Positions 2,477 through 21,040 of a stretch of DNA of 21,040 nucleotides are shown piece by piece (position 1 is the stretch's first letter; every line of letters begins with the position of its first letter). The notes beneath the pieces were generated by a model. It searched no databases, was not told the DNA's origin, and saw only the letters and a list, made by a program, of their open reading frames with translations. The DNA lies in assembly GCA_036867785.1 (NCBI GenBank), contig CP145410.1, forward strand, positions 1,922,001-1,943,040, given 5' to 3'. The DNA comes from Plasmodiophora brassicae. Taxonomy: Eukaryota. Position numbers and translations under genes: made by a program.

Positions 2477-2907
2477 GACTCGATTGCCGTCGCCTATCCA
2501 GCATGAGGACCGGCAGCGCAGCAGGCATCATGGCGATACTCTGCTTCTCTGCAAGGTGGTGAAGGCCCATTAACCTGTTGTCTTTCGAACCGGCTGACAT
2601 TCATGTCGTTCCCGGCAGGCGCCAGCATTGCTGCTCAGAATCCAGGCGAGTTCGGAACCATCGTTGTTGCCGCGTCGGCCCCTGCTGGTACTGGTTTGAC
2701 GAATTGTGCATCTCCAGCCTGGCTGACATCCCCGCGGTATTCTGGCAGACACTGGCGATGCTGCTAAGAATCCTGACGAGTGCTGTGTCACCCCTGTTGC
2801 CGCCGTGCGCCCTTTCTGATGCTGGTCGGCAGGCGTCACGTAATCGACTTCCTGTTCTGGTCGACCTTCAGGCGACTGCAAGCTGCTTGAACCACTCCAT
2901 TCTGGTA

Positions 2908-3083
2908 TGTGCCGGCTCCAAGCTATAAGACAAGAATAGCTGTGATCCGGCTAGGCCGCCCTAAGAATGACGGACATGCACGGAGTGCGCACGGAGTCCG
3001 CACGGCGTACGTGGGAGCTGCAGGTCGGGGACACAGACGATTATACTACACGGCTGATATACCATCACCGTTGGGACGTCACA
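2908..3083 (+). repeat. 5' LTR of element 1 (176 bp; right boundary inferred)
   Basis: Starts TGTGCCGGC and ends GACGTCACA (7/9 inverted repeat). The following sequence, CACA-GAGATCTCTTG, parallels the proven boundary of element 2 (CACA-GAAGCTTCTTG). Leader to ATG is 47 nt versus 43 nt in element 2. Only the first 70 nt are confirmed by the second copy. Confidence 0.75.
2978..3010 (+). repeat. 3 x 11-bp tandem repeat inside the element 1 LTR
   Basis: GCACGGAGTGC GCACGGAGTCC GCACGGCGTAC. Confidence 0.85.
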
Positions 3084-3092
3084 GAGATCTCT
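3083..3092 (+). promoter_or_regulatory. Perfect 10-bp palindrome at the primer-binding-site position of element 1
   Basis: AGAGATCTCT begins on the last base of the inferred LTR. No TGG-initiated tRNA complement. Function inferred. Confidence 0.6.
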
Positions 3093-3130
3093 TGAACATC
3101 CTTTCGGGGAAGGTTTCAAAGAAGGACGCG

Positions 3131-6100
3131 ATGGTGGCCACCGCGCAGGAGATGCTGCTGGAAGATGACGTCGATGATCGACAACAAGGACAGAGCGTGC
3201 AAGGCTCAACGATCGTCCTGCAGATGAACAAGGCGCCGACCTTGAAGAGCATGGACCGCAAGGCCGTCACGACGTTCATGGCCGAGCTGAAGACGTATCG
3301 GAATCACTTCCGGGACGATCCGAATGCCAAGGGCCAGATCCCACGGTCAGTGAGGAGTATGATCGACCCCGGTCTGCTCAGGGCGATCTGCAAGTGGGAA
3401 CTCGGCACGGACGCCGAGGGGGTGACGGAGAGCGACCTGATGGACTGGATGAAGAGGCATCTGGAGCAGGATCGCTCGACGGACGCGAACATCGACCGGG
3501 AGATGCGGAAGCTGGCGATGAAGCTGACCATCACCACACCAGCGGCAAGGGTCGTGAACCTCGTGCAGCAGTACGAGGAATTGGTCGCGCGCAACGGGTG
3601 GCAGGACCTCTTCACGTCCCGCGAGGGACGGAAGAACCTGGTCAAGTACCTACTGGGTGCTGTGCGCCCATCCGGTTTACAAGCGCTCATGCGGACCCTC
3701 GTCATGAAGCGCCAGACCGATCTCCAGAAGGACCCTTTGGAATTCTATCGGGTGCTGAAGGAACGGGCTGCATCGTATGAGGAGACGATGTTGTACATGG
3801 AGCCGGGACGTGAGGATGGCAAGGGGAAGGGAAAGGTCAAACCCACCCCAAAGAAGCGAGGGGCGCAGACGGATGAAGGAGGCGATGGAGGCCGGGACAC
3901 GAAACGACACCGGAAGGACCTGCGATGTTTCAACTGTGACGAGGTTGGACATCCAGCGTTTCGTTGCCCGAAGAAGCCTACCAAGAAGCAGGTCGCAGAC
4001 CTGCTGAAGGATCGCCGCAAGGGGCCAACGGGAAGGGATGGACCCCGTAAGGCCAAATCTGATAAAGATGACGACTTGTCAGAGTACCCATGGCTTCCAG
4101 TGGTAGGAAGAGTGTCGGAGGGGGCGCAGAGGACAGGGGACCAAGTAGTCGTTCGTGTAAACGGACATGAGGAAGACTACGTTGGGGTTCTGGACAGTGG
4201 AGCGACATCGGTTGACGTTCTGATGCCATTGACCATAGCGCGCGAGCTAATGGAGCGGGACCCATTGTTAACAATGGAGAACCTCCAGAAGCCGGAAACG
4301 TTCTGTCTGGTAGACCGAGAAACGAAGCACACAGCCTACCATGTGATGATACTGGATCTGGGACTGACGACGACGGCAGGCGAACTGATCACTCGCCGGC
4401 GCCGATGCCTTGTATGGGACATTCCTGAAAAGGAAGTAATCCTAGGGGAGAGGCTGTTGGACGACTTGGGTATCCACCCAAAGAAGGCCCTGGACGTACT
4501 CATTAAGAGCACGCCGAAGAAGGGGAATGACGTCATGGATGAAGTGCACAATATGGCAAACGAGATGCCACCTCTCTGGGAAGGGGAGGAAGAGGAAACA
4601 GAGGATGTGAGGATCGGAACCGATTCCACAGACTCCCTGGAAAGGGAGATGGACGGGATGGTCGAGCGCGCATTGAGGAATGGCCTACCGCAAGCGATGG
4701 GGAAATCGCTTCGGAAACTCGTCAGAAGATATAGGGACGTTTGGCGTATGAGCATTGGACCTGATGGTCCAGCCAGGGTTACACCATTTGTCACGGAGCT
4801 GAAACCGGATGCGGAACCTTACAGGTGCCGAGCCAGAAAGTACAGTATGGAGGACAGTGCTTTCATGGAGGAATTCGTCGCCCAATTGAAGAAGTATGGC
4901 CTAGTCGTTGAAAACTACAACGCGAAGTGGGCTTCACCGGTGGTGGTGGTGACGAAGCCAGGGGGCGGAAAGCGGTTCTGTGTTGATCTCAGAGCTGTTA
5001 ATGCCAAATGTGTCGCCGTGGCGTGGCCTATGCCACATCAGGAGGCGATACTGAGGAACCTGGCAGGCTCGAGGTTCTGGTTTAAGCTAGACGCGTTCAA
5101 AGGCTTCTGGATGATGCCGCTGGATGAAGCGTGTCAGGAGATCTTCTCCTTCATGACAGATAAGGGGGTGTATAAGCCAACGAGGTCGATGCAGGGGGGA
5201 ATGAACTCCGCCCCTCAGTATCAAGGGAGGATGTTTGAGGTGTTCGGGGAACTTATGTTCCACAAACTAATCATATGGATCGATGATCTAATGGGGCATG
5301 CCCAAAGGGAGGATGATTGGTTCCGAACGTTGGAACGGACTCTGATGCTAGCCGAACGGCACAGCATCAAGTTCAACGTGGAGAAGTGTGAGCTCTTCAC
5401 AACAGAGGTTCGGTTCTGTGGAAGGATATTCACGCCAGAAGGGGTAAGGCACGATCCTGCTAGGATTGAGGCTTTAATGGCGATACCACAGCCGAGGACG
5501 GCAAGGGACTTGCAACAATTCCTTATGGCAACTCAGTGGATGAGTAGGTCCATCCCTGAGTACAACAGGAAGGTACACCTGTTACAGAGGATATACGAGG
5601 ATGCAATGAAGGACCAACCTGGCAGGACGAAAGCCATTGCCAGGAGGGTGCGATTGTGCAAATATGGATGGTCACCCGAACATGCGCTGGCATTCGAGAA
5701 ACTGAAGATGGCAGTGGCGGACACGGTCCAACTAGCGTACCCGCGAAAGGACCGGATCCAATGCCTATTCTCAGATGCAAATGAGGTTAACAGCGCGGCG
5801 GTAGTCACACAGATTCCGCCTGAGGACTTGGGTAAACCAGTGCATGGGCAGCGACATGAACCGCTGGGTTTCGTCGGACACAAGTTCGCGGGCCCAGAGC
5901 GGAACTGGTCCACGGTGGAGAAGGAAGGGTTCGCGATCAAGGATGGGATTGACAAACTGGACTATCTCGTTACAACCAACGAGCAGTTTCGTTTGTTTAC
6001 CGATCATAGGAATCTCGTGAGGATATTCTCACCAACGGACGTGTCAAAGCCAACGGCGCAGAAACTGCAACGATGGGCACTGGACATACAGAGGGTCAAC

Positions 6101-7984: not shown

Positions 7985-7996
7985 GAAGGAGGGGAA
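7985..7996 (+). other. Polypurine tract of element 1
   Basis: GAAGGAGGGGAA immediately precedes the TGT of the 3' LTR. Confidence 0.9.
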
Positions 7997-8066
7997 TGTG
8001 CCGGCTCCAAGCTATAAGACAAGAATAGCTGTGATCCGGCTAGGCCGCCCTAAGAATGACGGACAT
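7997..8066 (+). repeat. Truncated 3' LTR of element 1 (first 70 nt)
   Basis: Identical to 2908-2977. Identity stops exactly where the element 2 LTR begins at 8067. Confidence 0.85.
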
Positions 8067-8263
8067 TGTGCTAACGCCGCCGCTGCCCACTACGGGGGCG
8101 GTCGGTCGCAAGAGTCGGCGCCTGGTGATATAACGAACTGATGTATTTGGACAGGATCGTCACAGCAAGGGCCGCTGCGGGGTCGAGTACGGTCATGATC
8201 ATGTGACCGGGTGGCAGCAGCATCTGAGCAGCATCATCTGAGTACTGGTACTCTGGATGAACA
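8067..8263 (-). repeat. 3' LTR of element 2 (197 bp)
   Basis: Base-for-base identical to 13206-13402; reads TGTTCATCC...TTAGCACA on the minus strand. Confidence 0.97.
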
Positions 8264-8269
8264 CTCCCC
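8264..8269 (-). other. Short polypurine tract of element 2
   Basis: Minus strand reads TAA(stop)-CAC-GGGGAG-TGTTCA(LTR). Confidence 0.7.
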
Positions 8270-8272
8270 GTG

Positions 8273-11200
8273 TTAGAAATCTGCTAACAGTCGTGAGCAG
8301 AGCGGGTCTCCTTCGGCTTGTCGTTCGAGGAAGGCTCTGACGATATCAGGAACATCGGCCGCCATGACCGAGTAAGGTTCCCATGAATTGTCGGTGGCCT
8401 CGAATCCGATCCAGTTGATCAGTAGTTCAGTGTCACCTGACGTAGAATTGACTCGAATGTCCTCGACTGCGTTGACTTGGTAAGCCACGCCGGTGAGCGC
8501 GATGTTGTGCTTCAGGGAAGAGGTGACATTCAAGTGCGCATCTGCATAGAACATTAAGCGCTGGGCGTGTACATCTGAGATATGATCAGTCAAGAGATCT
8601 CGAACTCGATACACCCAGTCGTTGATGGTGTCGATAATCTGGGCAGGTCCAGTCCAGTTGTACTCGGACTTGGAGTGCTTGCCATGGTTGGCCACGAGAA
8701 CATAGTCGCCCGTCGTGAAGTTGATCTCGCGAACATTGCGTCGGCGACGCCGGGCGCGTTGCTTGAGATCACGTAGATGGGTGCGTGTACGTGCCACTTC
8801 TTTGTGCATGTCCTCGAGAGAATCGGTAAGTTCCGTCGTCATTTCCTTGAGACGGTCAGGGGTCAACGGTACGTCGATAACCGCGTCGATGCGTTTGTTG
8901 AAGATAATCGAGATAGGTGTCGAGGGTGGCAAACCCGTAAACATCGTGACAGGCGCGTAGCCCACACTTGATCGAACAGTGTGATTTACCGTCATGTTGA
9001 TCAGCGGAAGGACATACGGCCAATCCTGGAATGGAAGATTTAGCTCGGAGAGGAGGGACTTCAGCAGAAAGAGAAGCCGCTTGTTGACAACCTCAACCGT
9101 GCCGTTCGCCCAAGGTGTGTAGGCAGTTGTGAAATGATGGTTGCAGTGTAACCGGCTATTAAGCTCGGCGATAACCGCGTTTTTGAAGTGTGTGCCGCGG
9201 TCAGAGACATGTTGGAAAACAATGCCGAAACGTTTGAACCAATCCAGAAGAGATTCGGCGACAACGCTGTGATCCGCGAATTGACAAGGAATTAACTCGA
9301 CGAATGCCGTGGCGTCGTCCTTCAGAACCAGAACATAACGAAGTTGATGAGAATCGCCTGGACGAGGTTTGGATAAGAAAAGAAAGTCATAGTGGATGAC
9401 CTTATTGGGCTTGTCCGCATGCATAGCCGTGCCATAAGGTCGGGGGATCATCGAATCTTTGTTGCGTAGGCAGTGTAAGCATTTGTCCACAAATGCACGA
9501 ACAAAGGAATCGAGATCAGGCCACCAGAAGAGTTGCGCGATGCTCGAAATAGTCGATGCAGCAAGTTGATGACCAGACAGTCCCATATGTGAAATCACTG
9601 CGATGCGTAGCTGCAGTGCATGTGATGGTACCCAGAGTTGATTGTCTGGAGTACGCCAGCCAGATTCCGGGCTAAGGTGGAGAGACATGTCCCCTTCGAG
9701 TTGGAGAATATCAGAAACGGCAGATAGGTCGTGTTGGCGAATGTAGTCGGTCTGAGCGTTACTAATCTCGTCGGCAGACGGCCAGATAAACTCATCGGTC
9801 ATCTTGTAATCGTCGAAGTCAAGATTAATTGCCATATGACGAATAGAACGGAACGAGGGAGGGGAAAATGAGGACAATGGTTGCAGGGCGACGCCCCAAC
9901 GCGTGGCGAGGTCGGCCCAAACGTTGTCCTCCCCAGCAATGTGCTCAATGTGAAAATCTAGGTCGATAATCTGAAGTCGCCAGCGCTCCAAGCGATCGCC
10001 GGTCGTCCGACTAATTCGTGCAACCGAGGCAGGGTTCAGAATGAAAACCAAATTACGGTGGTCTGTGAAGATTCGAAGTGCCAACTTTGACATAGAGATG
10101 AAGTGTCTGAGGCGATAGCAGCCTTCGATGATGGCGTAGGCCTCCTTCTCAATGGTCGCCCACTTCAATTGAGAACCACGGAATGTCCCCGAGATGAACG
10201 ACAAAGGTTCGTGGTGTTGCTCACCGTACGGGAGATCAATATCTTCCGGAGGGATCTGCGACAGGAAAACAGACCAGAAACGGTCACTCGCATCCGGAAA
10301 GAGACACATGATCCATTCGTCCTTGGGGTGCGCCAGCGTCATGGCCTCCGATAGACGATGCTTCAGAGAATTGAAACTGGTGAGATGGTCAGTGGTCCAG
10401 CCGATGTCGGCTAAACGAACTCGACGTAGATGTGATTTCTTCAGACTGCTGACAGAACGAGAAGCGGACAGAAGTAGATCCTGCAGCGGATGTACGTGTG
10501 CCGCGAATTGAGGAATAACAGAACGGACCCAATTGAGGCCCGAGAGGAACTGTTGAAGATCAGCAGCCGTGATAGGAGTTGATAGATCGTGCAAGGCGTT
10601 GAGATACGAGCGATCGAACGACACTCCATCAGCGGATATAACGCGACCGCACCATGTCACTGAAGTGAGATATAACTGGCAGCGATCAGGGTTGAGTTTA
10701 ACTCCAAACTCGTCGAAAGCGTTGAGAAGAGATTCGAGTGTGTCCATGTAGGCTCCGAATCCAGATACGTAGCCGAGGATATCGTCGATCCAGAGTAGGG
10801 CGCAGATATATAGAAGTTTCCCCAACACCTGTTGCATTCCCGCCTGGAACGCAAACACGCAATCAGCAATTCCCTGGATGATGCGCCTGGGTGTAAACGT
10901 GGCGATGTGCGTCATGAACGAGCAGGCCTCCTGCGAATCAGGGTGCAACGGAAATTGCCAATAGCCTTTAAAGGCATCGAACAGCATGAAGATGGTCGCG
11001 GAACGTAGGTAGGTCAGGATGATGTCGATGTGAGGCATCGGCCATGCAATGCGTTCGGTCTGTTTGTTGACGGCTTCATTGATGTCGACGGTCAGCCGAT
11101 GGCCGCGAACCTCCGTGTCCTTCTTGTCGACGACCAGACACGGCGACGCGTACCTGCTGTGCGGATTGCGGTACACAAAATCGTTTTCCGCCAAGGTCCC

Positions 11201-13162
11201 TACATGATCATCCATGAATTTTTGGTGTTCGAGGGTATACCTTCGTGTTCGGCAACGGACAGGACGAGCATCTGCTTTGAAGTGTAGTTTCAGTGGACTT
11301 ACCTTCGCAGGTGGATCACGGCCAAGCTTCGTTCGCCATATGTCTTTGTGTCGATTGACAGTTGTGCGTAGACGCGGGACTTGATCGTTAGGGAAACCGG
11401 AGTCAGTTGCACGTTGTATCATCCGGTCTATTGCCCTGTCCACGTCTGTATCGGAGTGTTCTCCGATTTCGACATCATAGTCGTCACCCGGATCATTGGT
11501 GTCCAATTGGGGCTCATGATCGCGAGTTGTTCCACTTACCTCCGGGTGTCTTACCGCTCTCATCGTGATCCCTTGACCACCTGGGGCGTGACGTTCCGGG
11601 GTCGGATCCGCTTCGATGATGATAGGACCATTTGCCTCGATTAACATCTCCTTCAGTTGTGTAGCTGGATTGATACCCAACGCGTCCAGTTCCGGGGCTC
11701 CTAAAAGGACAATGTCATCAGATAGGTCTTCGCGACATACGTTGATTTCCCGCCCGCGTAGATGTGCAGGTTTGCCATGCGAAGGTGGGACAATGGTGAT
11801 GTCCACGATCGCTGTGGCGACAATTGTTGTCGTAGCCCCGATCGTTGCAAGTTTCGCCTCCGTTGGATGGTCGAACACTTTGACTGGGACATGCTGGATG
11901 GCTTGAATCCGTAGCAGTTGCGATTGCGAAATGACGGTCTTCGTCGCACCACTATCGGCTTCGAATGGAAGGTCGAGCGAGTTCTGGAAGCGAAGTCTCA
12001 TAGGGGACGGTGTTGACGGCGACGGCGGGCCCATGCGCTTTGCCGTGTCTGCGTTGCCCTTACTCTCCTCCTTCTCTTTGCGCTCTTTCTGGAACTTTTC
12101 AATGGCAGCTTTGCGTTCTCCTTGAGTTGCCTTCGGGCACACTTGGACCCAGTGCTGCTCCTTGCAGATTAGGCAACCTGCCTTTGGAGGATCCTTACCT
12201 TCGAAACGTTTTCGGATGTGCTCGGGGATGTCCCTCGATTCGTCTTTCGTTTGCGATGTGGACGATTGAGCTGTCTTCAGTCCGATCGGATTTGTCGGAT
12301 GCTTGCCGCCATTCCTATTCGGAGCAACAACGTCCTTACCTTTCTTACCTGCAGGTGGGGACATGGTCTGCGCTGGAGACTTCTTCTTCTCAGCTTGCAG
12401 CCGGAAGTGTTTGTCCTGCTCTTTGGCAAGACGGTCGACGAGGTCGAAGAATTTGAGCTCGTCCTTCTCAGCGTCCCTGCACCCTCCGAACTCGATCGCG
12501 CGTTCGACTAGAACCGCAAGGTCAGTGGGACGGATACCTCCGCGTAATACCTTGATCTTGCGCTTGGTTCCTTTCGTTCCTTTGGCGTATGTGTCTTGTA
12601 GCCCATAGTCGTCGATTAGCTCATCGAACTTGGCGAAGAAAGACGTGACACGTTCCTCAATACTCTTGATTGACAGGTTCATGACCACTGTCTTCGTGAG
12701 AAGCGCCTTGATGTCTGTCGAACTCTCGACATCAGCCTCCCTGCGTTGGACTGACCTCAAGTAGCTCATGATGTCGCCATCCGTGATCGTGCTGGCGGGT
12801 TGACGTAGGCGATATTTCGACATCCCTCTGAGGACGTCCTCGGTAATGCATGACTTCACCGTTGGCGGATGAATATCCTCCTTGTAGATCAGTCGGCGCT
12901 CGTTAACGATCTCGACGTGTTTCCTATATTTCTTGAGGAAATCGTTAATTCCGTCCTTGGCCGTAAGGCTCAGGGTACGTAGGATGGGCGGTTTCAAAGG
13001 CATAAAGATCGGGCTCTTACCGTGCAGGTTTGTTGACTGAAGCCCTCGATCGATTTCGTCATCTGTCGACGATTCATGCTCCTTGGCCTCGGCGTCGGAG
13101 TTGGTCCTGGCGTCGTCCTCCATCTGTAGACGAACGGGCGCTCTGCGGCCACCTCCTGCCAT
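8273..13162 (-). CDS. Gag-Pol polyprotein with C-terminal chromodomain (1629 aa)
   Basis: Knuckle CLICKEQHWVQVC; protease ADSGA; RT FDAFKGYWQ...IIQG...WIDD; RNase H FPDAS/EKEAYAI/FTDHRNL; integrase HMGLSGH...CLHC, IHYDF, VSDRGTHF, TVEVVN; GPY/F-like WTGPAQI; chromodomain LINWIGFEATDNSWEP. Confidence 0.97.
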   Translation of the reverse strand: MAGGGRRAPVRLQMEDDARTNSDAEAKEHESSTDDEIDRGLQSTNLHGKSPIFMPLKPPILRTLSLTAKDGINDFLKKYRKHVEIVNERRLIYKEDIHPPTVKSCITEDVLRGMSKYRLRQPASTITDGDIMSYLRSVQRREADVESSTDIKALLTKTVVMNLSIKSIEERVTSFFAKFDELIDDYGLQDTYAKGTKGTKRKIKVLRGGIRPTDLAVLVERAIEFGGCRDAEKDELKFFDLVDRLAKEQDKHFRLQAEKKKSPAQTMSPPAGKKGKDVVAPNRNGGKHPTNPIGLKTAQSSTSQTKDESRDIPEHIRKRFEGKDPPKAGCLICKEQHWVQVCPKATQGERKAAIEKFQKERKEKEESKGNADTAKRMGPPSPSTPSPMRLRFQNSLDLPFEADSGATKTVISQSQLLRIQAIQHVPVKVFDHPTEAKLATIGATTTIVATAIVDITIVPPSHGKPAHLRGREINVCREDLSDDIVLLGAPELDALGINPATQLKEMLIEANGPIIIEADPTPERHAPGGQGITMRAVRHPEVSGTTRDHEPQLDTNDPGDDYDVEIGEHSDTDVDRAIDRMIQRATDSGFPNDQVPRLRTTVNRHKDIWRTKLGRDPPAKVSPLKLHFKADARPVRCRTRRYTLEHQKFMDDHVGTLAENDFVYRNPHSRYASPCLVVDKKDTEVRGHRLTVDINEAVNKQTERIAWPMPHIDIILTYLRSATIFMLFDAFKGYWQFPLHPDSQEACSFMTHIATFTPRRIIQGIADCVFAFQAGMQQVLGKLLYICALLWIDDILGYVSGFGAYMDTLESLLNAFDEFGVKLNPDRCQLYLTSVTWCGRVISADGVSFDRSYLNALHDLSTPITAADLQQFLSGLNWVRSVIPQFAAHVHPLQDLLLSASRSVSSLKKSHLRRVRLADIGWTTDHLTSFNSLKHRLSEAMTLAHPKDEWIMCLFPDASDRFWSVFLSQIPPEDIDLPYGEQHHEPLSFISGTFRGSQLKWATIEKEAYAIIEGCYRLRHFISMSKLALRIFTDHRNLVFILNPASVARISRTTGDRLERWRLQIIDLDFHIEHIAGEDNVWADLATRWGVALQPLSSFSPPSFRSIRHMAINLDFDDYKMTDEFIWPSADEISNAQTDYIRQHDLSAVSDILQLEGDMSLHLSPESGWRTPDNQLWVPSHALQLRIAVISHMGLSGHQLAASTISSIAQLFWWPDLDSFVRAFVDKCLHCLRNKDSMIPRPYGTAMHADKPNKVIHYDFLFLSKPRPGDSHQLRYVLVLKDDATAFVELIPCQFADHSVVAESLLDWFKRFGIVFQHVSDRGTHFKNAVIAELNSRLHCNHHFTTAYTPWANGTVEVVNKRLLFLLKSLLSELNLPFQDWPYVLPLINMTVNHTVRSSVGYAPVTMFTGLPPSTPISIIFNKRIDAVIDVPLTPDRLKEMTTELTDSLEDMHKEVARTRTHLRDLKQRARRRRRNVREINFTTGDYVLVANHGKHSKSEYNWTGPAQIIDTINDWVYRVRDLLTDHISDVHAQRLMFYADAHLNVTSSLKHNIALTGVAYQVNAVEDIRVNSTSGDTELLINWIGFEATDNSWEPYSVMAADVPDIVRAFLERQAEGDPLCSRLLADF

Positions 13163-13196
13163 TAAGTGAGTTCGTTTGCTTGGGGCTCTTTGCGCA

Positions 13197-13206
13197 AGAA
13201 GCTTCT
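13197..13206 (-). promoter_or_regulatory. Perfect 10-bp palindrome at the primer-binding-site position of element 2
   Basis: AGAAGCTTCT begins on the last base of the 5' LTR (minus strand) and is followed by a second palindrome, TTGCGCAA (13190-13197). No TGG tRNA complement. Function inferred. Confidence 0.65.
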
Positions 13207-13402
13207 GTGCTAACGCCGCCGCTGCCCACTACGGGGGCGGTCGGTCGCAAGAGTCGGCGCCTGGTGATATAACGAACTGATGTATTTGGACAGGATCGTC
13301 ACAGCAAGGGCCGCTGCGGGGTCGAGTACGGTCATGATCATGTGACCGGGTGGCAGCAGCATCTGAGCAGCATCATCTGAGTACTGGTACTCTGGATGAA
13401 CA
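13206..13402 (-). repeat. 5' LTR of element 2 (197 bp)
   Basis: Identical to 8067-8263. Confidence 0.97.
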
Positions 13403-13806
13403 TGTTCCCTCATTGCGTTATGTATGAATATAGGCGGCCTTGCGGGCAGGGGCGGTGGAGGGTACGACCGTTGTTGTTCACATCCAGTTGCATCATTTGA
13501 CATGCAGGTTTTAGGCCCTGAGGATGTTCGTGGGTGGCGGACAATGAAGCTCTGCCACTTAGGCGATCCGGAAGGCATATTGGCGTCGTGGTTAACGGCG
13601 GATCGGCGCCCATCAAGAAACAGCTACCGTTCAATAAACCATTCGTTAATCTTATTCTATTCTATTGTTAACGGCAATACCAAATACGATAGTGTCTCAG
13701 AATCTGGGGTACCATTCTATTCTATTACTGGACGGAGGAAAAATTCAATCGAGATTTTTGGAGAATGCCCGTGGAGCGCATTTTTTGGGAAATCCGGTCC
13801 CGAAAA

Positions 13807-13987: not shown

Positions 13988-16000
13988 ATGATGGCGAACG
14001 TTGTCCTGTTGTTGAGTGTGGTTGGATGCGCAACGGCGTCCTGTCCCGGGGATGCGCCAGTGAAAACACCGACCACGAATGGGAAATTCCTGTTCGCCCA
14101 CTATATGATCTTCTCGCCGTCAACCAACTCTACCATGGCCGGGTTCCAGCGCGATATTCTCCTTGCGCAATCGGCCGGCATTGACGGGTTCGCATTGAAC
14201 CTGGCCGTCTGGAGCGGGTCGCCGGTATACCGGCAAAGGGCAACTTTGATATTTGACGCCGCAGACCAGCTGAATACCGGATTCCAGCTGATGTTCAGTC
14301 TTGACATGAGCAAGAACATGCCACAGGCCGATATCGTTAGCATTCTGACTACGTTCTCGTCCCGATCCAGTCAGGCGTACCGAAATGGAAAACAGATGCT
14401 GTCAACATTCGTCGGCCAGGCGATTCCGGGCGTCGGGAACGTTAGCAATTGGTGGGCGTCCGCTTTCTCGCAGGCATCATTTATCACCGGCAAAGGCGTA
14501 TACTTCATCCCGTTCTTCGTCCCGTCGGGTGGAAATTCCACCACGGGTCTTCCTCGTGTCATTGATGTAACGAATATCATCGATAAGTACCCAGTCGTCG
14601 ATGGATTGTTCAGCTGGAATTTGTTGGGATACCCGAACCCCTCCAAAGGTCTTGGCAAACTCCTAGGCGCCACGATTCCAGACAACGAGGTCAACTACCG
14701 CTTGGGATGTAACCAGCGATCACGCGCGTTCATGGCCTCCATTGGGCCATGGTTCTCAACACACGACAGGCCGAAGTACATACTCTGTCGCTGCTTCCTT
14801 ACCATCGTTCACTGATTTCTTTCAAACAGTCACAATGGAATTTATGGCAATTATCGAGGGCCCACAATGTGGATGGAACGGTGGGAGACTATATATGAGA
14901 CGCAGCCCGATCTCGTCGAAATCGTCACTTGGAACGATTACGCAGAATCGTCGTACATCGGGCCACAAGCCCCGATGATCTACTCGTCAGAATGCCCCCC
15001 TGCCACAAATTACAGCCACGACGCATATTTGGAGTTGACCCGATACTTCAGTACGCGATGGAAGACTGGGGCGTACCCTGTAATTGGGCGTGAGAAGTTA
15101 TTCATCTTCTATCGGACACATTCGAAGAATGCTGTGCCCATGGCAGATCCGTACAATCCGAACCCGGTCAACAACAGCCAGGTGATCGACGACATGCTCT
15201 ATGTTGCCACGATGCTGTATACGTCGGCCATGCTGACAATGAATTCGGGATCGAATACGTCGACGGTGAGGGCTCCCACTGGATTCAGCATTTTTTCGCT
15301 TGGCCAGGATCAAGGATTGCAATCCGCTGTTCTGAAACGGAACGGCGATGTTATACTATCCGTTGTCGGTGATCTGCCGTTTAGCAACCACATCGTGTAC
15401 CGGAACTTTAATGTATATTCGAAGTTCGTGCAAGCCGACAAATGTGTTCTTGCGGCAAAAACATCAACGAAGCGGCAGATAATGCAGTCGACCGCAACGC
15501 GGACTCCTGTACTGGCAACGGAATCGTTGAAGAAGCCCATATCTACTCAAGATTTCGCAAAGCCATCCCACACAACAATAGGCTTGAGACGGGCAACGAA
15601 ATCAATTCGAAAAGTGGTATCGACTCGACATTCTCATGTCTCTACAAAGACGGGAAACCGTACAGCAATCCTGTTGTCACCGATTACAAAATCAGCGCGA
15701 AGCGCAATGTCGATTCGCGCGCTCCACTTCAAATCGCGACGATCTACAACATGGATAGTTCACAACCAGAGATCCAGAACAATGCAAAATTTGGTCCCGT
15801 CGAATCAGGTTCGGGTGCTCAACACAGGCGTACGAAAGTCCACGGCACTGGCGAACAAGGCACCGAAACCTATATCGACGTCGTCTCAGCCCTTTGTGAA
15901 TCACGCAAAAAGGAACGCGACGAGTTTCGCCAGTCGGGCATCGAGAACTGATTCGCTCCAAGTCATATTCCTCCTCTACGTGATTGCCGAAATCCTGTAG
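13988..16000 (+). CDS. Secreted glycoside hydrolase family 71 (alpha-1,3-glucanase/mutanase-like); exons 13988-14775 and 14830-16000, about 652 aa
   Basis: Signal-peptide-like N-terminus. GH71 motifs FAHYMI, DILLAQSAGIDGFALN, LMFSLDM, LSTFVG, VDGLFSW, PWFSTH, VEIVTWNDYAESSYIGP, FYRTHSK. A 54-nt GTACAT...CTGAT...AAACAG intron (14776-14829) joins the two ORF-track ORFs in frame. Confidence 0.9.
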
Positions 16001-16699: not shown

Positions 16700-18148
16700 A
16701 TGGCCACTCAGACCCTGCTAGATATATTCGCCACCTACCTCCGCCACGTATTGGCCTTTCTGAATACGGTCGTTCTGTACCTCGCGCAATGTTTCAAGAT
16801 GATGCCCGACAGCGCAGTGCCAACGGGTCCCTCATGTTCGGATGGTACACGTTTCTCGCGCCGGATGTCCTTCATCAGCCGGAAATTATACGAGTCGGCG
16901 TTCCCGTTGGATGCCCACGTGCCGACGCCCATCACCCATCTTCTCTTTCGTTTCGCGGATGGATGCCCGTCGCGTGCAGCACTTTGCAAGTCGGTGCGCG
17001 ACGGCATCCTCCAACGCGATGCATTCTGGCGGTTCCGATCGACGCTGCTGCCTGGTGCCACCGACTTCACTCCTCTCGATATCGATGAAATTGACCTGTC
17101 GCAATGCGTGCTCCGACATGATGTTGACCTGCCAGATGACGCCGCTGTTCATGCGTTTATCGAGACCATCTGTCTGGATTCATTCCCAGTCGGCCGCCCG
17201 CTATGGTCGATGCATATCCTACCACCTAATTCTGTTCTCGTCCGCATTCATCATGCTCTGGCCGATGGTATTGGCCAGGTTCATGTTCTGAGCTCCATTG
17301 TCGAAGGTGCCACGCACTTGACAGCCAAGTCTGCTGCAGTCCATCGCCCATCGGTACCGCCGACCGCCTATGCTCTCAACACTCTGCGCTCCTTGTTTAA
17401 GCTTCTTGTCTTGCCTCTCCGTCGTGACTCGCACACCGCCTTGACGTCGCACCCTGTCTGTACGCCCCCATACGCCGTTCTCTGCGCTCCACCCATCCGC
17501 CTGGCTGCTTTGAAATCCATCAAGAACGCCGCCGGGTGCACGATCAATGATGTGGTCATGACGGCGCTGGCCGGTGCCTGCCGTCGTTACGTGTCCCGCA
17601 ACGACCCCTCGGCGCCGCTGACGAACCTGTCGATGCGCGCCATGGTGCCGTTCGCGTTCAGTCGTTCGTCATCCGACCCGGTCCACAACCTGTGGTGCTT
17701 CCTATCCGTACCGTTGCAGGTGTCGGCTAGCGACAGTACGTCGCGTCTCAAGGGGACCGTCGACGAGATGACCCGCCTGAAGACGAGTCCGGAGCCATAC
17801 CTGCAGTTAGGGTTGCAGAAGCTGATCGCCAAGGTCGTACCGGAATCCTTACAGCGTCAAGTCGTCCGCGACTTGTTCCTGTCGCATTCGATTGTGATCA
17901 GCAACGTTCCGGGCCCGCAAGTTCCCGTCGTTATCGCCGGATCCACAGTCACCGGCGTGCAAACCTTCATGACGAACATCCTGCCGCAGATGCTTGTCTC
18001 GTCGTACAACGGGGTCGTCAACGTGTCGCTGACCGTCCAGCGCCAGGCTATACCCCAGCCACAGTCGCTGCTCGACGATTTCGTCGACGAGTGCCGCGAC
18101 CTGGCCCGGTCTTACAACGTTGACCCAGCCTGCGTCACCGTCATCTGA
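16700..18148 (+). CDS. Wax ester synthase / diacylglycerol acyltransferase (WS/DGAT family)
   Basis: RPLW, catalytic HHxxxDG (RIHHALADG), TINDVVMTALAGACRRY and C-terminal SNVPGP...SYNG motifs; single 482-aa ORF. Confidence 0.92.
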   Translation: MATQTLLDIFATYLRHVLAFLNTVVLYLAQCFKMMPDSAVPTGPSCSDGTRFSRRMSFISRKLYESAFPLDAHVPTPITHLLFRFADGCPSRAALCKSVRDGILQRDAFWRFRSTLLPGATDFTPLDIDEIDLSQCVLRHDVDLPDDAAVHAFIETICLDSFPVGRPLWSMHILPPNSVLVRIHHALADGIGQVHVLSSIVEGATHLTAKSAAVHRPSVPPTAYALNTLRSLFKLLVLPLRRDSHTALTSHPVCTPPYAVLCAPPIRLAALKSIKNAAGCTINDVVMTALAGACRRYVSRNDPSAPLTNLSMRAMVPFAFSRSSSDPVHNLWCFLSVPLQVSASDSTSRLKGTVDEMTRLKTSPEPYLQLGLQKLIAKVVPESLQRQVVRDLFLSHSIVISNVPGPQVPVVIAGSTVTGVQTFMTNILPQMLVSSYNGVVNVSLTVQRQAIPQPQSLLDDFVDECRDLARSYNVDPACVTVI

Positions 18149-18381
18149 TCGTCCGTGGCCGTAAACGCGATTGTCCAACGGCAGCAGTAAAACGCCAACG
18201 TCTTCAGCCAGCATACCATAGCGCAAGTGACGACGTATATACGCACGGGCTGTCTTGTCAGCCGACTGCTGCACGATTGATTCGGCGGGCGCGACATTGC
18301 GAGCGCGCACTTGCTCGTTGCGGGTTGACCTGCAACTGCGGCGCTGCCTGTCTGCTGTGGCAGCGGCGCCCGTCTCCGGCA

Positions 18382-19491
18382 ATGTTCCGCCTGTGGAAGG
18401 TAATACGTGCGCGACACCTGCTTGGTGCCGCTGGCGGCAGCGCCATCGCATATTCCGCCTGGAACACGCCTCCCGTGCCTCCGTCGCTGGCGGAACCGGC
18501 GACGCCCGTCCAATCCACCATCGTACGTAGTAGCCGACGCACGTGCCTAGGTATCCTGTTATGGGTTCCAGTCGCTCTGACACGAGGGGCTGTACAGCGA
18601 TGGGCAGCTAGAGCGCTCCCGCACCGGGCCACCTCGAGAATGTACGGGCTCATGGCGGGATGGCATATTCCCGAATTCCTGCGTTCGCCTATCTTCGGGG
18701 CCTGGGCCTTCTTCTTCAATGCCGACCTGGACGAGGCCAGATACCCGCCGCGCGCCTACACGACCTTGAACGACTTCTTCACGCGCCCGTTGAAGGACGG
18801 TATACGACCCATTGATGCCGTTGCCGATGTTGTCTCGCCTGCCGATGGGCTCGTCACGATGTACGTTTCCGCCCGTGATGGCTGGCAACGTGTGCCTCAC
18901 TCTCGGCGGTGTAGATGCGGGCAGGTGTCGCCGCATGGGCGTCTGGACCAGATCAAAGACTCGTCGTATGCGCTGGACGGGTTCCTGGGGTGCGCACCCG
19001 AACCGGGGCCGGGATCCTCCCTGTACTACTGCGTTGTGTACCTGGCGCCGGGCGATTACCATCGGTTCCATTCGCCGTCCCGATGGCATATCTGCGAGCG
19101 AATGCATATCGCTGGCGATCTGCTGTCCGTGGCGCCCGCCCTGGTGAGACGCGTCCCCGGCCTGTTCACCATGAACGAACGCGTATCGCTGATTGGGCAA
19201 TGGGCGCACGGGTTCTATTCGCTAACCGCCGTCGGCGCCTTCAATGTCGGGTCCATCCGTATCAACATGGATGACGATCTGGTGACCAACTTGCACGGCA
19301 GCCAGGTCGGTATGCCGCCGCTGCGACGCCCGTTCATGCACTTAAGCGAACGGGGTGACGAGCTCGGCCGGTTCATGCTCGGGTCCACCCTGGTCGTTGT
19401 CTGGGAGGCACCCGACAAGCAGTTCGAGTTTACTGTCCAGCCGGGCCAGGTTGTACGTGTCGGGCAATCGATCGGCTCGGTTACGTTATAA
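18382..19491 (+). CDS. PSD1: Phosphatidylserine decarboxylase proenzyme, PSD1/mitochondrial type; exons 18382-18522, 18598-18860, 18915-19491 (about 326 aa)
   Basis: FFTRPLK, SPADG, YLAPGDYHRFHSP, NERV, VGAFNVGSI and the LGST autocleavage motif. Arg-rich targeting-like N-terminus MFRLWKVIRARH. Two GTACGT...AG introns (75 and 54 nt) inferred; removing the second restores SPADGLVTICGQV. Confidence 0.93.
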   Translation: MFRLWKVIRARHLLGAAGGSAIAYSAWNTPPVPPSLAEPATPVQSTIVRSSRRTCLGILLWVPVALTRGAVQRWAARALPHRATSRMYGLMAGWHIPEFLRSPIFGAWAFFFNADLDEARYPPRAYTTLNDFFTRPLKDGIRPIDAVADVVSPADGLVTMYVSARDGWQRVPHSRRCRCGQVSPHGRLDQIKDSSYALDGFLGCAPEPGPGSSLYYCVVYLAPGDYHRFHSPSRWHICERMHIAGDLLSVAPALVRRVPGLFTMNERVSLIGQWAHGFYSLTAVGAFNVGSIRINMDDDLVTNLHGSQVGMPPLRRPFMHLSERGDELGRFMLGSTLVVVWEAPDKQFEFTVQPGQVVRVGQSIGSVTL

Positions 19492-19666: not shown

Positions 19667-20706
19667 TCAGACAATATCGTTCGGCCGCGTTGGTATAAGG
19701 CTTTCCTTGATGTCGTATACGCGCTTGACCTCCTCCCAGAGACGCATATCCATCTGGACGATGGACTGCGTAGGCACATGACCGCTCTTGAGCTCCTCGT
19801 TATCCGGAGGCGTCTGATACGTGACGCGAAGTTCGCCGTCGTCGTCGACCTGGATCTGGGCATGCCCACTGCCGACCAGGAACGATAGGTCGAACAGGTT
19901 CTCGACAGTCTGCCCGAACGACACAGGGTTGACAATGAGCCTGAAGAACGGGTATCCAGTTGGCGCCGACTTCAAGATCTTGTGCAGGGTCGCCACTCGC
20001 GCGTCAGTCTGTGTTTGGACCAGGGTGGTAGCCGGTGCCTCAACACGATCGACGTGGACCGCATCGGTGTCCGGCGCCTCCCGACGGCGCTTTCGCGCTC
20101 GAGTCTTCTCTGCCGGTTCCGCTCCCGCCGTGTCCATCGTCAACAGGCCCGGCATGAAGTCGCAGGTGCGCACCGACACCAGGCAGTTACTCCCGTCCTT
20201 ACCCAGCCGAACCCAGTCGATTGATGCGCCACGTTCGCGCACGTCTTCGTCATCATCGTCGGCCATGTCCATCGAGAATTCAGACGCAATCCTCGCTATG
20301 AAGTCCTACAGCAGCGGTTAGGACGCATGCGACGGCATCGCTATCAGGACCCTGGTCTGGAGACGTACGTCAACGGAGACGAGGCTGAACTTCTCGGCCA
20401 TTAGTCGCGTACTCTCGGCAGTCAACGATGCCATGAGTGACAGTTCCTTGGCCTCGATGTTCGCCTCCGAAGGGTGCAGCACTACACAGACCGGATCAGT
20501 CTTCGCAGTGGGCTCCGACACGTCGCCCGACCTCGCTCGTGGATGGCATCATGCTGAGCGTGGAGTTCTTCCAGTACGGACGCGTCGCCAGCGAATATGG
20601 CGGCTCGCGACTCTTTCGTCCTCTTGACGAGCGCGCGCAGGTCCTGCCGCACGACGATCCGCTCGGCATCGGTCTGCTTCGTGCTATCGCCGAGCAGCCT
20701 GCGGGG
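19667..20706 (-). CDS. NSE4: Smc5/6 kleisin subunit Nse4/EID family, 5'-incomplete; exons ~20706-20532, 20481-20369, 20305-19667 (at least 308 aa)
   Basis: C-terminal FFRLIVNPVSFGQTVENLFDLSFLV is the Nse4_C signature; middle IDWVRLG; N-terminal QTDAERIVVRQDLRAL...VLHPSEANIEA resembles the Nse4 N-helix. Introns 20482-20531 (50 nt) and 20306-20368 (63 nt, GTACGT...CTAAC...TAG) keep the frame. No in-frame ATG between the telomere and 20434. Confidence 0.88.
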
Positions 20707-20707
20707 C

Positions 20708-21040
20708 TTAGGGTTTTAGGGTTTTTAGGGTTTTTTAGGGTTTTTTAGGGTTTTTTAGGGTTTTTTAGGGTTTTTTAGGGTTTTTTAGGGTTTTAGGGTT
20801 TTAGGGTTTTTAGGGTTTTAGGGTTTTTAGGGTTTTAGGGTTTTAGGGTTTTAGGGTTTTAGGGTTTTAGGGTTTTAGGGTTTTAGGGTTTTAGGGTTTT
20901 AGGGTTTTAGGGTTTTAGGGTTTTAGGGTTTTAGGGTTTTAGGGTTTTAGGGTTTTAGGGTTTTAGGGTTTTAGGTTTTTAGGGTTTTAGGGTTTTAGGG
21001 TTTTAGGGTTTTGGGGTTTTTAGGGTTTTTTAGGGTTTTT
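20708..21040 (+). repeat. Telomeric repeat array, mainly TTTTAGGG
   Basis: G-rich strand runs 5'->3' to the window end. Proximal variants are TTAGGG, T5AGGG and six T6AGGG units (20731-20790). Confidence 0.98.

Follow-up and report, generated by a model that had tools for sequence, protein, structure and literature searches.

A palindrome occupies the position of the primer-binding site in Ty3/gypsy retrotransposons of Plasmodiophora brassicae and in related elements

Introduction

What primes reverse transcription in a retrotransposon that carries a palindrome where its primer-binding site (PBS) should be? The question is raised by a stretch of 21 040 nucleotides from Plasmodiophora brassicae (GenBank assembly GCA_036867785.1, contig CP145410.1, positions 1 922 001–1 943 040 of the forward strand; hereafter the window), which holds two long terminal repeat (LTR) retrotransposons, E1 and E2, near a chromosome end. 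Retroelement lineages are defined in part by how minus-strand synthesis is primed, and to our knowledge only two modes have been established experimentally for LTR elements, namely priming by a host tRNA and the self-priming of Tf1. In the replication of LTR elements, DNA synthesis begins at the base adjacent to the primer, so the primer of E1 and E2 must pair just 3′ of the LTR’s last A. An initial annotation of the window, made from its letters, described a palindrome at this place in both elements and proposed a distinct mode of priming or dimerisation. A palindrome in place of a PBS has been noted before, with no mechanism attached, in fungal Copia elements, and is found here in an unrelated and widespread Ty3/gypsy clade. 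Its recurrence, the symmetric way in which its sequence changes and the matching change in a reverse transcriptase (RT) motif point to a recurrent mechanism that is open to test.

Palindromes at the LTR borders of E1 and E2

Positions 3080–3094 of the window, in E1, read CACAGAGATCTCTTG on the forward strand, that is, CACA/GAGATCTCTTG across the end of the LTR (a slash marks the border here and below). The 10 bp at 3083–3092, AGAGATCTCT, form a perfect palindrome that opens on the last A of the 5′ LTR (2908–3083, forward strand; TGTGCC...GTCACA, 176 nt). E2 lies on the minus strand, where its sense sequence reads CACA/GAAGCTTCTTG at the end of a 5′ LTR of 197 nt (13206–13402; TGTTC...GCACA). 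The forward strand at 13197–13206, AGAAGCTTCT, is again a perfect 10-bp palindrome, and its first base in the sense direction is the LTR’s last A. Both palindromes are therefore as initially described, and both occupy the position required of a PBS.

How precisely these borders are known differs between the two elements. The 5′ LTR of E2 is 100% identical to its 3′ LTR (8067–8263, minus strand, 197 nt) and the bases immediately outside the two copies differ at once, so the E2 LTR ends exactly at the palindrome’s opening A. The end of the E1 LTR cannot be read from the window because the 3′ LTR of this element stops after its first 70 nt (7997–8066, a repeat of the first 70 nt of the 5′ LTR). 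For the limits of the E1 LTR, contigs of four public sequencing runs were compared with positions 2500–3700. Loose contig ends before 2907/2908 place the LTR start; they include E1’s own polypurine tract, GAAGGAGGGGAA (7985–7996, forward strand), whose letters recur identically in the contig ends of runs X6 and X11. On the other side, one DNA contig departs from the E1 sequence after 3085, and in two runs there are long internal contigs with their first base at 3055, a distance of 30 nt before 3085. This offset equals k − 1 if Logan contigs use k = 31, which we take to be the value. Together, the departure and the internal starts put the LTR end at 3083–3085, so that the end at 3083 assumed in the initial annotation holds to within this interval. 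From 3009 to 3247, the contigs of the four runs showed no variant letters.

Metatranscriptome reads of run X20 cover 3047–3344, which places the LTR end, the palindrome and gag on one RNA; this run gave no cover upstream of 3047, and no transcript start was deduced from it. Separately, a low-depth contig of run X17 joins 2993 and 3119 on opposite strands. The joint lies off the palindrome’s centre and belongs to a diverged copy (12 differences in 104 nt).

Position of the palindrome in related elements

A protein search yielded 77 relatives, and an alignment of 25 was used to scan metagenome contigs, leading to 80 loci kept from 135 confirmed metagenome stretches. The junction between the LTR and the internal region was predicted from match coordinates, or found, in 39 of the 80 loci; the other 41 are pol fragments. 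Three of the 39 were removed after inspection, the junction being absent: L025 stops exactly at the LTR end, L032 consists of a 3′ LTR with its flank and L070 begins within gag. In 33 of the remaining 36 loci (31 in the first pass, with L022 and L034 added), a perfect palindrome of at least 10 bp (range 10–16 bp) stands at the predicted LTR end. The exceptions are L019, an atypical case with CTACCGGTAG near an ambiguous LTR end; L080, whose palindrome is imperfect, with 6-nt arms flanking a 3-nt spacer, in a leader visibly homologous to that of E1; and L055, an equivocal case. L002 is chimeric, and the LTR of L068 was not independently delimited.

True LTR pairs with flanks occur in three of the loci, each with a palindrome at the border between LTR and internal region: L033 (...CTACAA/AGAATTCTTTAG, palindrome AAAGAATTCTTT), L060 (...TCAAAA/GTAATTACTTTGG, palindrome AAAGTAATTACTTT) and L052 (...CTACAAT/AACGTTATTAG, palindrome AATAACGTTATT). 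The palindrome starts on the LTR’s last A in E1, E2, L033 and L052, and one base later in L060. Across 302 257 nt of related loci, the background rate of perfect palindromes of at least 10 bp is 1.30 per kb, and the chance that one starts within 1 nt of a given base is approximately 0.004. All five independently delimited LTR ends (E1, E2, L033, L052 and L060) have a palindrome within 1 nt, which would be expected by chance with a probability of approximately 1e-12. Chance is thus excluded by the position of the palindrome at the five delimited ends. It is this position that forms the independent evidence, the perfection of the inner pairs being partly a matter of construction.

Many contigs of 5–7 kb have identical first and last 100–350 nt, some of these redundant ends lying within coding sequence (L001, L003, L010, L016, L026, L028, L036, L042, L051 and L065). 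They are circular permutations with a single collapsed LTR, as assemblers make from LTR, tandem or circular forms. In these contigs, a G-rich polypurine tract with TGT(AG) after it signals the LTR start and (CT)ACA signals the LTR end, often as a 5–7-nt terminal inverted repeat of the start, and the palindrome opens on the final A of (CT)ACA.

Some of the individual loci have further features. The contig of L025 terminates on the LTR’s last base (4260–4271, ...GACGCTACA), which may reflect an assembly break at a repeat border or the end of a linear cDNA. In L080, the leader at 4320–4470, ATCAAGAATCTCTTGAATTCATCC, is homologous to GTCACAGAGATCTCTTGAACATCC of E1; a 119-nt segment that starts exactly at the right arm recurs at the start of the contig (1–119), and an apparent cysteine-rich host gene stands upstream in place of the LTR. 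L068 (218–7154) has an unusually long gag region, with open reading frames (ORFs) of 718 and 490 aa ahead of pol, and the candidate palindrome of this locus precedes the first ATG by 135 nt.

Covariation, phylogeny and the RT motif

The 27 representative lineages, E1 and E2 included, show 17 distinct maximal palindromes with lengths of 10, 12, 14 and 16 bp, of which AAAGAATTCTTT is the commonest. Counted on centre-aligned 28-nt junction windows, the five innermost pairs display 4, 4, 3, 3 and 2 Watson–Crick types. The palindrome opens with A in 23 of the 27 representatives and is preceded by C in 19. The covariation that the initial annotation suspected from two elements therefore extends to the relatives, and palindromy is maintained through many different sequences over a large clade.

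A quick IQ-TREE phylogeny was built from RT–RNase H segments (38 rows, SH-aLRT support only), leaving out L043, L049, L060 and L067, whose best segment was shorter than 250 aa. In this tree, AAAGAATTCTTT is found on deep and shallow branches, including E1’s own clade, while at least 12 other palindromes are derived. Proteins from Pythium and Phytophthora are nested within the clade.

The RT active-site motif of both elements is WIDD, not YxDD (residues 716–719 of the E1 polyprotein P0002, at approximately 5276–5287 of the window; LLWIDDIL in the E2 polyprotein P0001). At the position of the tyrosine, W is present in 50 of 54 closer relatives, the others being one Y (P0042), two gapped sequences and one that is unaligned. 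Among 24 more distant matches, the residue is Y in 21, with F, R and W in one each. As far as the DNA allowed, the clade marked by the palindromic border is also the one marked by the W(I/L/V/M)DD motif. The RNase H motif residues D882, E932, D958 and D1005 are invariant in 25 sequences.

Tests of known priming modes

No TGG is found at the LTR border in any of the 27 representatives, among them E1 and E2, which bears out on a wider sample the initial remark that neither site has the usual start of a tRNA-type PBS. ARAGORN detected no tRNA gene in the window or in the 80 loci. Stems of the tRNA cloverleaf are parted by loops of at least 7 nt, and perfect loop-free palindromes of 10–16 nt are not expected from it. 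Priming by tRNA is disfavoured chiefly because 17 different sequences all stay palindromic. A TGG close to the ATG of E1 (3132–3134) was considered as a PBS and dropped; it lies 48 nt from the LTR, in a start-codon context.

A complement of the site within the element’s own LTR, as in Tf1, was likewise reported as missing from E1 and E2 at the outset. This holds more generally: in 16 of 16 lineages (E1, E2 and 14 others) such complements are at chance level, the longest being 4–7 nt (at most 5 nt in E1 and E2), with at least 50 of 300 shuffles reaching the observed length in every lineage. No Rfam family matched the window at gathering score; with E-values up to 10, the region 2850–3250 gave just a chance snoRNA match of 9.7 bits.

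Predicted pairing of two element RNAs

With 24-nt windows, RNA homodimers are predicted at −18.8 kcal/mol for E1 and −22.3 kcal/mol for E2, whereas the E1–E2 heterodimer, at −5.0 kcal/mol, is not predicted to be stable. Both homodimers have the form 3 + 10 + 3 bp with the LTR’s penultimate C bulged out. The extended symmetric element of E1 is TCA[C]AGAGATCTCTTGA (3079–3095, forward strand; the unpaired base, C3082, is in square brackets) and that of E2 is GCA[C]AGAAGCTTCTTGC (13194–13210, minus strand, with one C unpaired); the extension, scored past a bulged C or AC, amounts to 3 bp in each. A random-window control for the homodimer energies is of little value, the sites having been chosen as palindromes. 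The earlier suggestion that the core confers family specificity fits the predicted failure of E1 and E2 to pair.

A self-complementary primer-binding site

We tentatively favour, with slightly less than even confidence, the reading that the palindrome is a PBS and that its primer is the element’s own RNA rather than a tRNA. The reading starts from the position, the perfection and the covariation of the palindrome and from the absence of the known alternatives as tested; pairing in trans, cleavage, priming and copy-back are proposed steps, set out here by analogy with Tf1. Since the palindrome is the sole complement conserved across the clade, the primer would most simply be the corresponding stretch on a second copy of the element RNA. 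Two genomic RNAs would pair through the palindrome to form an RNA:RNA duplex of 10–16 bp. The element’s RNase H would then nick one of the two strands close to the duplex’s 3′ edge, as in Tf1, and the freed 3′-OH would be extended across the partner’s U5 and R; extension over U5 and R would make the LTR end exactly at the palindrome’s first base. Plus-strand synthesis would copy the RNA primer back, so that the right arm is re-made from a left arm in every cycle. Such copy-back would give perfect palindromes, pair changes that look ‘compensatory’ and a palindrome edge that coincides with the LTR end. Different cores would stop co-resident families from priming each other. A cut 3′ of the palindrome in both RNAs would leave the second strand transfer without homology, so the model calls for an asymmetric cut.

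The nearest experimental precedent for such a primer is the Tf1/sushi group, in which, as Levin and co-workers reportedly found, the element supplies the primer from its own RNA in place of a tRNA. The Tf1 PBS pairs with the transcript’s first 11 nt, within the LTR and on the same molecule, and is not palindromic; RNase H cuts the RNA:RNA duplex to give the 3′-OH of the self-primer. The primer is the source from which a PBS sequence is inherited. The mode favoured here would share with Tf1 an own-RNA primer, a PBS directly after the LTR, an RNA:RNA duplex cut by RNase H and an inherited PBS. Unlike in Tf1, the LTR complement is absent in these 16 lineages, and the sole conserved complement is the site itself. 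Self-priming of the Tf1/sushi type is cited in the available portions of PMC5445492, PMC6934838 and PMC6317226, the last of which gives it as predicted by surveys for the Tcn1 and TAR plant lineages. For the oomycete elements Chronos and Archon, the accessible part of the description makes no mention of a PBS (PMC5348765).

Several considerations weigh against a self-complementary PBS. The sites were located through a search for perfect palindromes, a bias that is bounded by there being only three exceptions in 36 loci, and for most loci the LTR end was deduced from the polypurine tract, the TGT start and the terminal inverted repeat, or from similarity, and not from LTR pairs. The flank extension beyond the bulged C is not significant over the 27 lineages (127 of 2000 permutations reach it, p approx. 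0.06), and the case against tRNA priming draws on the sites themselves and on tRNA searches confined to the window and the 80 loci. The asymmetric cut is an assumption only, and the palindromic 3′ end of plus-strand strong-stop DNA could pair with itself unproductively. The sequencing runs were all compared as contigs, among which no fold-back joint with symmetry about 3087/3088 appeared; contigs cannot show the absence of one.

A broader proposal is possible but distinctly less probable than the reading of the palindrome as a PBS. It holds that there is a third general priming mode, beside tRNA priming and fold-back of the Tf1 type, in which co-packaged genomic RNAs would pair via a palindromic PBS and one of them would be nicked to serve as primer; the palindrome would be rebuilt in each cycle and drift to family-specific cores. 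This mode would define a large WxDD clade of Ty3/gypsy elements, present in plasmodiophorids and many uncultured protists and probably in oomycetes too, and would have arisen independently in GalEa Copia elements, likewise with loss of the YxDD tyrosine. The model of a self-complementary PBS predicts the identity of the primer, cleavage next to the LTR’s last base, copy-back of arm mutations and incompatibility between families. There are practical consequences as well: annotation software that insists on a tRNA PBS will overlook such LTR elements or score them wrongly, and silencing of retroelements by tRNA fragments would bypass this clade.

Alternative explanations and known systems

The alternative that survives best, although we consider it unlikely, is that the palindrome acts only as a signal for dimerisation or packaging, similar to a retroviral dimerisation initiation site (DIS), with priming carried out by other means, for instance a protein, some small RNA or initiation de novo. 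Self-complementary sequences start the dimerisation of retroviral genomes, and the predicted homodimers of E1 and E2 are stable and family-specific. As with the DIS of human immunodeficiency virus 1, or pal II and the PBS palindrome of mouse mammary tumour virus (MMTV; PMC4264320, available portion), two genomic RNAs can be joined through a self-complementary sequence of the 5′ leader, and different cores can give specificity. In the accessible text of the same study, dimerisation was tested for the MMTV palindromes that lie within the tRNA PBS, and packaging required them, but substitutions in the PBS palindrome left dimerisation unchanged. Retroviral DIS are, moreover, 6-nt palindromes in hairpin loops that exist in addition to a tRNA PBS, whereas the palindromes described here are 10–16 nt long, stand in the PBS position and have no conserved hairpin. 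A signal for dimerisation alone also leaves the elements with no other candidate PBS, and it does not sit well with a palindrome that touches the LTR end, where anything between U5 and the primer would enter the LTR. The initial proposal, which left open whether the site serves priming or dimerisation, appears to be best supported in that form, as a distinct self-complementary site, with priming as the function that we favour.

The closest description of a comparable feature is the ‘Conserved Hairpin Site’ of the fungal GalEa Copia elements, the function of which is given as unknown (Donnart 2017, BMC Genomics 18:410; PMC5445492); the term is also used in the available text of PMC6934838. According to the accessible portion of the GalEa paper, these elements have no tRNA PBS, and a 9-bp box after the LTR, CTGATCAGT or CTAATTAGT, forms a 10-bp palindrome together with the LTR’s final A, its variants retaining the symmetry. 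A second, complementary box, CHSeq2, lies 12–41 nt downstream and yields a hairpin with a fixed A/A mismatch. The authors report no Tf1-type complement, and the RT motif is QTDD instead of YVDD (PMC5445492, same portion).

E1 and E2 resemble GalEa, as far as it is described there, in a palindrome that includes the LTR’s last A and in having neither a TGG PBS nor a Tf1-type complement. The tyrosine of YxDD is replaced in both cases (QTDD in GalEa, WIDD here), so that two unrelated lineages with palindromic borders both lack it. Against this, GalEa is a Copia element, while E1 and E2 have the RT–RNase H–integrase order of Ty3/gypsy and relatives of Ty3/gypsy type; no second box of the CHSeq2 type is detectable here; and the palindromes are longer and more varied (10–16 bp, 17 forms) than those in the accessible GalEa text. 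The statement in the initial annotation that no description was known thus has to be revised, a similar palindrome being on record for GalEa. What is new is its occurrence in Ty3/gypsy elements, with no second box, over a wide WxDD clade and with far richer covariation. A literature search, with most subscription journals and supplementary files outside its scope, turned up no account of a palindromic PBS for Plasmodiophora or for any Ty3/gypsy element.

The GalEa model could be transferred as a whole, with the palindrome pairing in cis with a box tens of bases downstream and the resulting hairpin priming or positioning RT. Its first half matches, as set out above, and there are hints of the second: a sequence further downstream that pairs weakly with the right arm in E1 and E2 (UCUUGAA...UUCAAAGA; CUUCUUGC/GCAAAGAG) and small hairpins after the palindrome in L026, L028 and L033. 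However, in a test limited to exact matches, the downstream complement does not exceed chance in any of 18 lineages. When 14 leaders were folded singly, no common monomer fold or hairpin emerged (z-scores from −2.24 to +1.02, and above −1.9 in 12 of the 14). We regard an intramolecular hairpin site as improbable.

About as doubtful is a binding site on DNA or RNA for a symmetric dimeric protein, such as integrase, Gag or a host factor, that co-evolves with the palindrome. Dimeric proteins do select palindromic sites, and a co-evolving protein encoded by the element would also yield symmetric changes. Arm length and core size nevertheless vary among palindromes of 10, 12, 14 and 16 bp, which fits base pairing better than a fixed spacing of half-sites; 17 sequences would demand as many changes in specificity, and a protein site offers no reason for an edge at the LTR’s last base. 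A heat-shock element or other host-factor site was also considered and dropped, the cores being too different. Very improbable, finally, is an ordinary PBS for host tRNAs or tRNA fragments with incidental palindromy: tRNA half-molecules prime some Copia lineages (PMC6317226, accessible text), but the sites of E1 and E2 do not open with TGG, and no set of tRNAs would impose 17 perfect palindromes.

Structure and genomic context of the two elements

E1 encodes a gag-pol ORF of 1555 aa (P0002; 3131–7798, forward strand) with a CCHC knuckle, the WIDD-type RT, RNase H, an integrase zinc domain and a chromodomain-like C-terminus. The gag-pol ORF of E2 encodes 1629 aa (P0001; 8273–13162, minus strand), and its polypurine tract, ...CGGGGAG in the sense direction (8264–8271, minus strand), adjoins the 3′ LTR. 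The two polyproteins are collinear and 30% identical. Their LTRs, initially called dissimilar, are indeed only weakly alike, although a gapped global alignment gives 55% identical columns and only one of 200 shuffles scores as high.

Matches to RT, two RNase H models and the integrase zinc domain are above the Pfam cut-offs in both polyproteins. For the Pfam model rve, the E2 match is marginal (32.4 bits against a cut-off of 32.6) and the E1 polyprotein has no match. Chromodomain matches are below threshold in both (22.8 and 19.5 bits against a Pfam cut-off of 25.1), while PF00385 is recorded for many relatives of E1 and E2. With TG...CA LTR ends, a polypurine tract, the RT–RNase H–integrase order and a chromodomain-like tail, E1 and E2 are Ty3/gypsy elements. 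The label ‘chromovirus’ given to them at first is not established, the chromodomain matches being sub-threshold.

E2 is located inside the 3′ LTR of E1 and truncates it after the first 70 nt (7997–8066, with E2 running from 8067 to 13402; 13402–13420 on the far side). The rest of this LTR is not present after 13402, and no target-site duplication was seen around E2. A deletion, or recombination between E2 copies, came after the insertion of E2.

On the other side of E1, contigs of run X17 over 2500–2907 have joints with GT..AG ends at 2553–2617, 2686–2748 and 2779–2833, at high depth. The pattern resembles that of a host gene, spliced and well expressed, with introns of 53–63 nt and its end just upstream of E1’s LTR. 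The window’s best protein match (P0003, 100% identity) carries the name Plasmodiophora brassicae at NCBI. Between E2 and the telomere lie a glycosyl hydrolase 71 gene over two ORFs (13988–14815 and 14867–16000, probably split by an intron), a WS/DGAT acyltransferase (16700–18148), a phosphatidylserine decarboxylase (18277–19491) and, on the minus strand, Nse4 (19667–20272). The window represents a chromosome end, as shown by the telomere-type TTTTAGGG repeats at its end; the array of these units spans 20700–21040, and its inner edge contains the variants TTTTTAGGG and TTTTTTAGGG.

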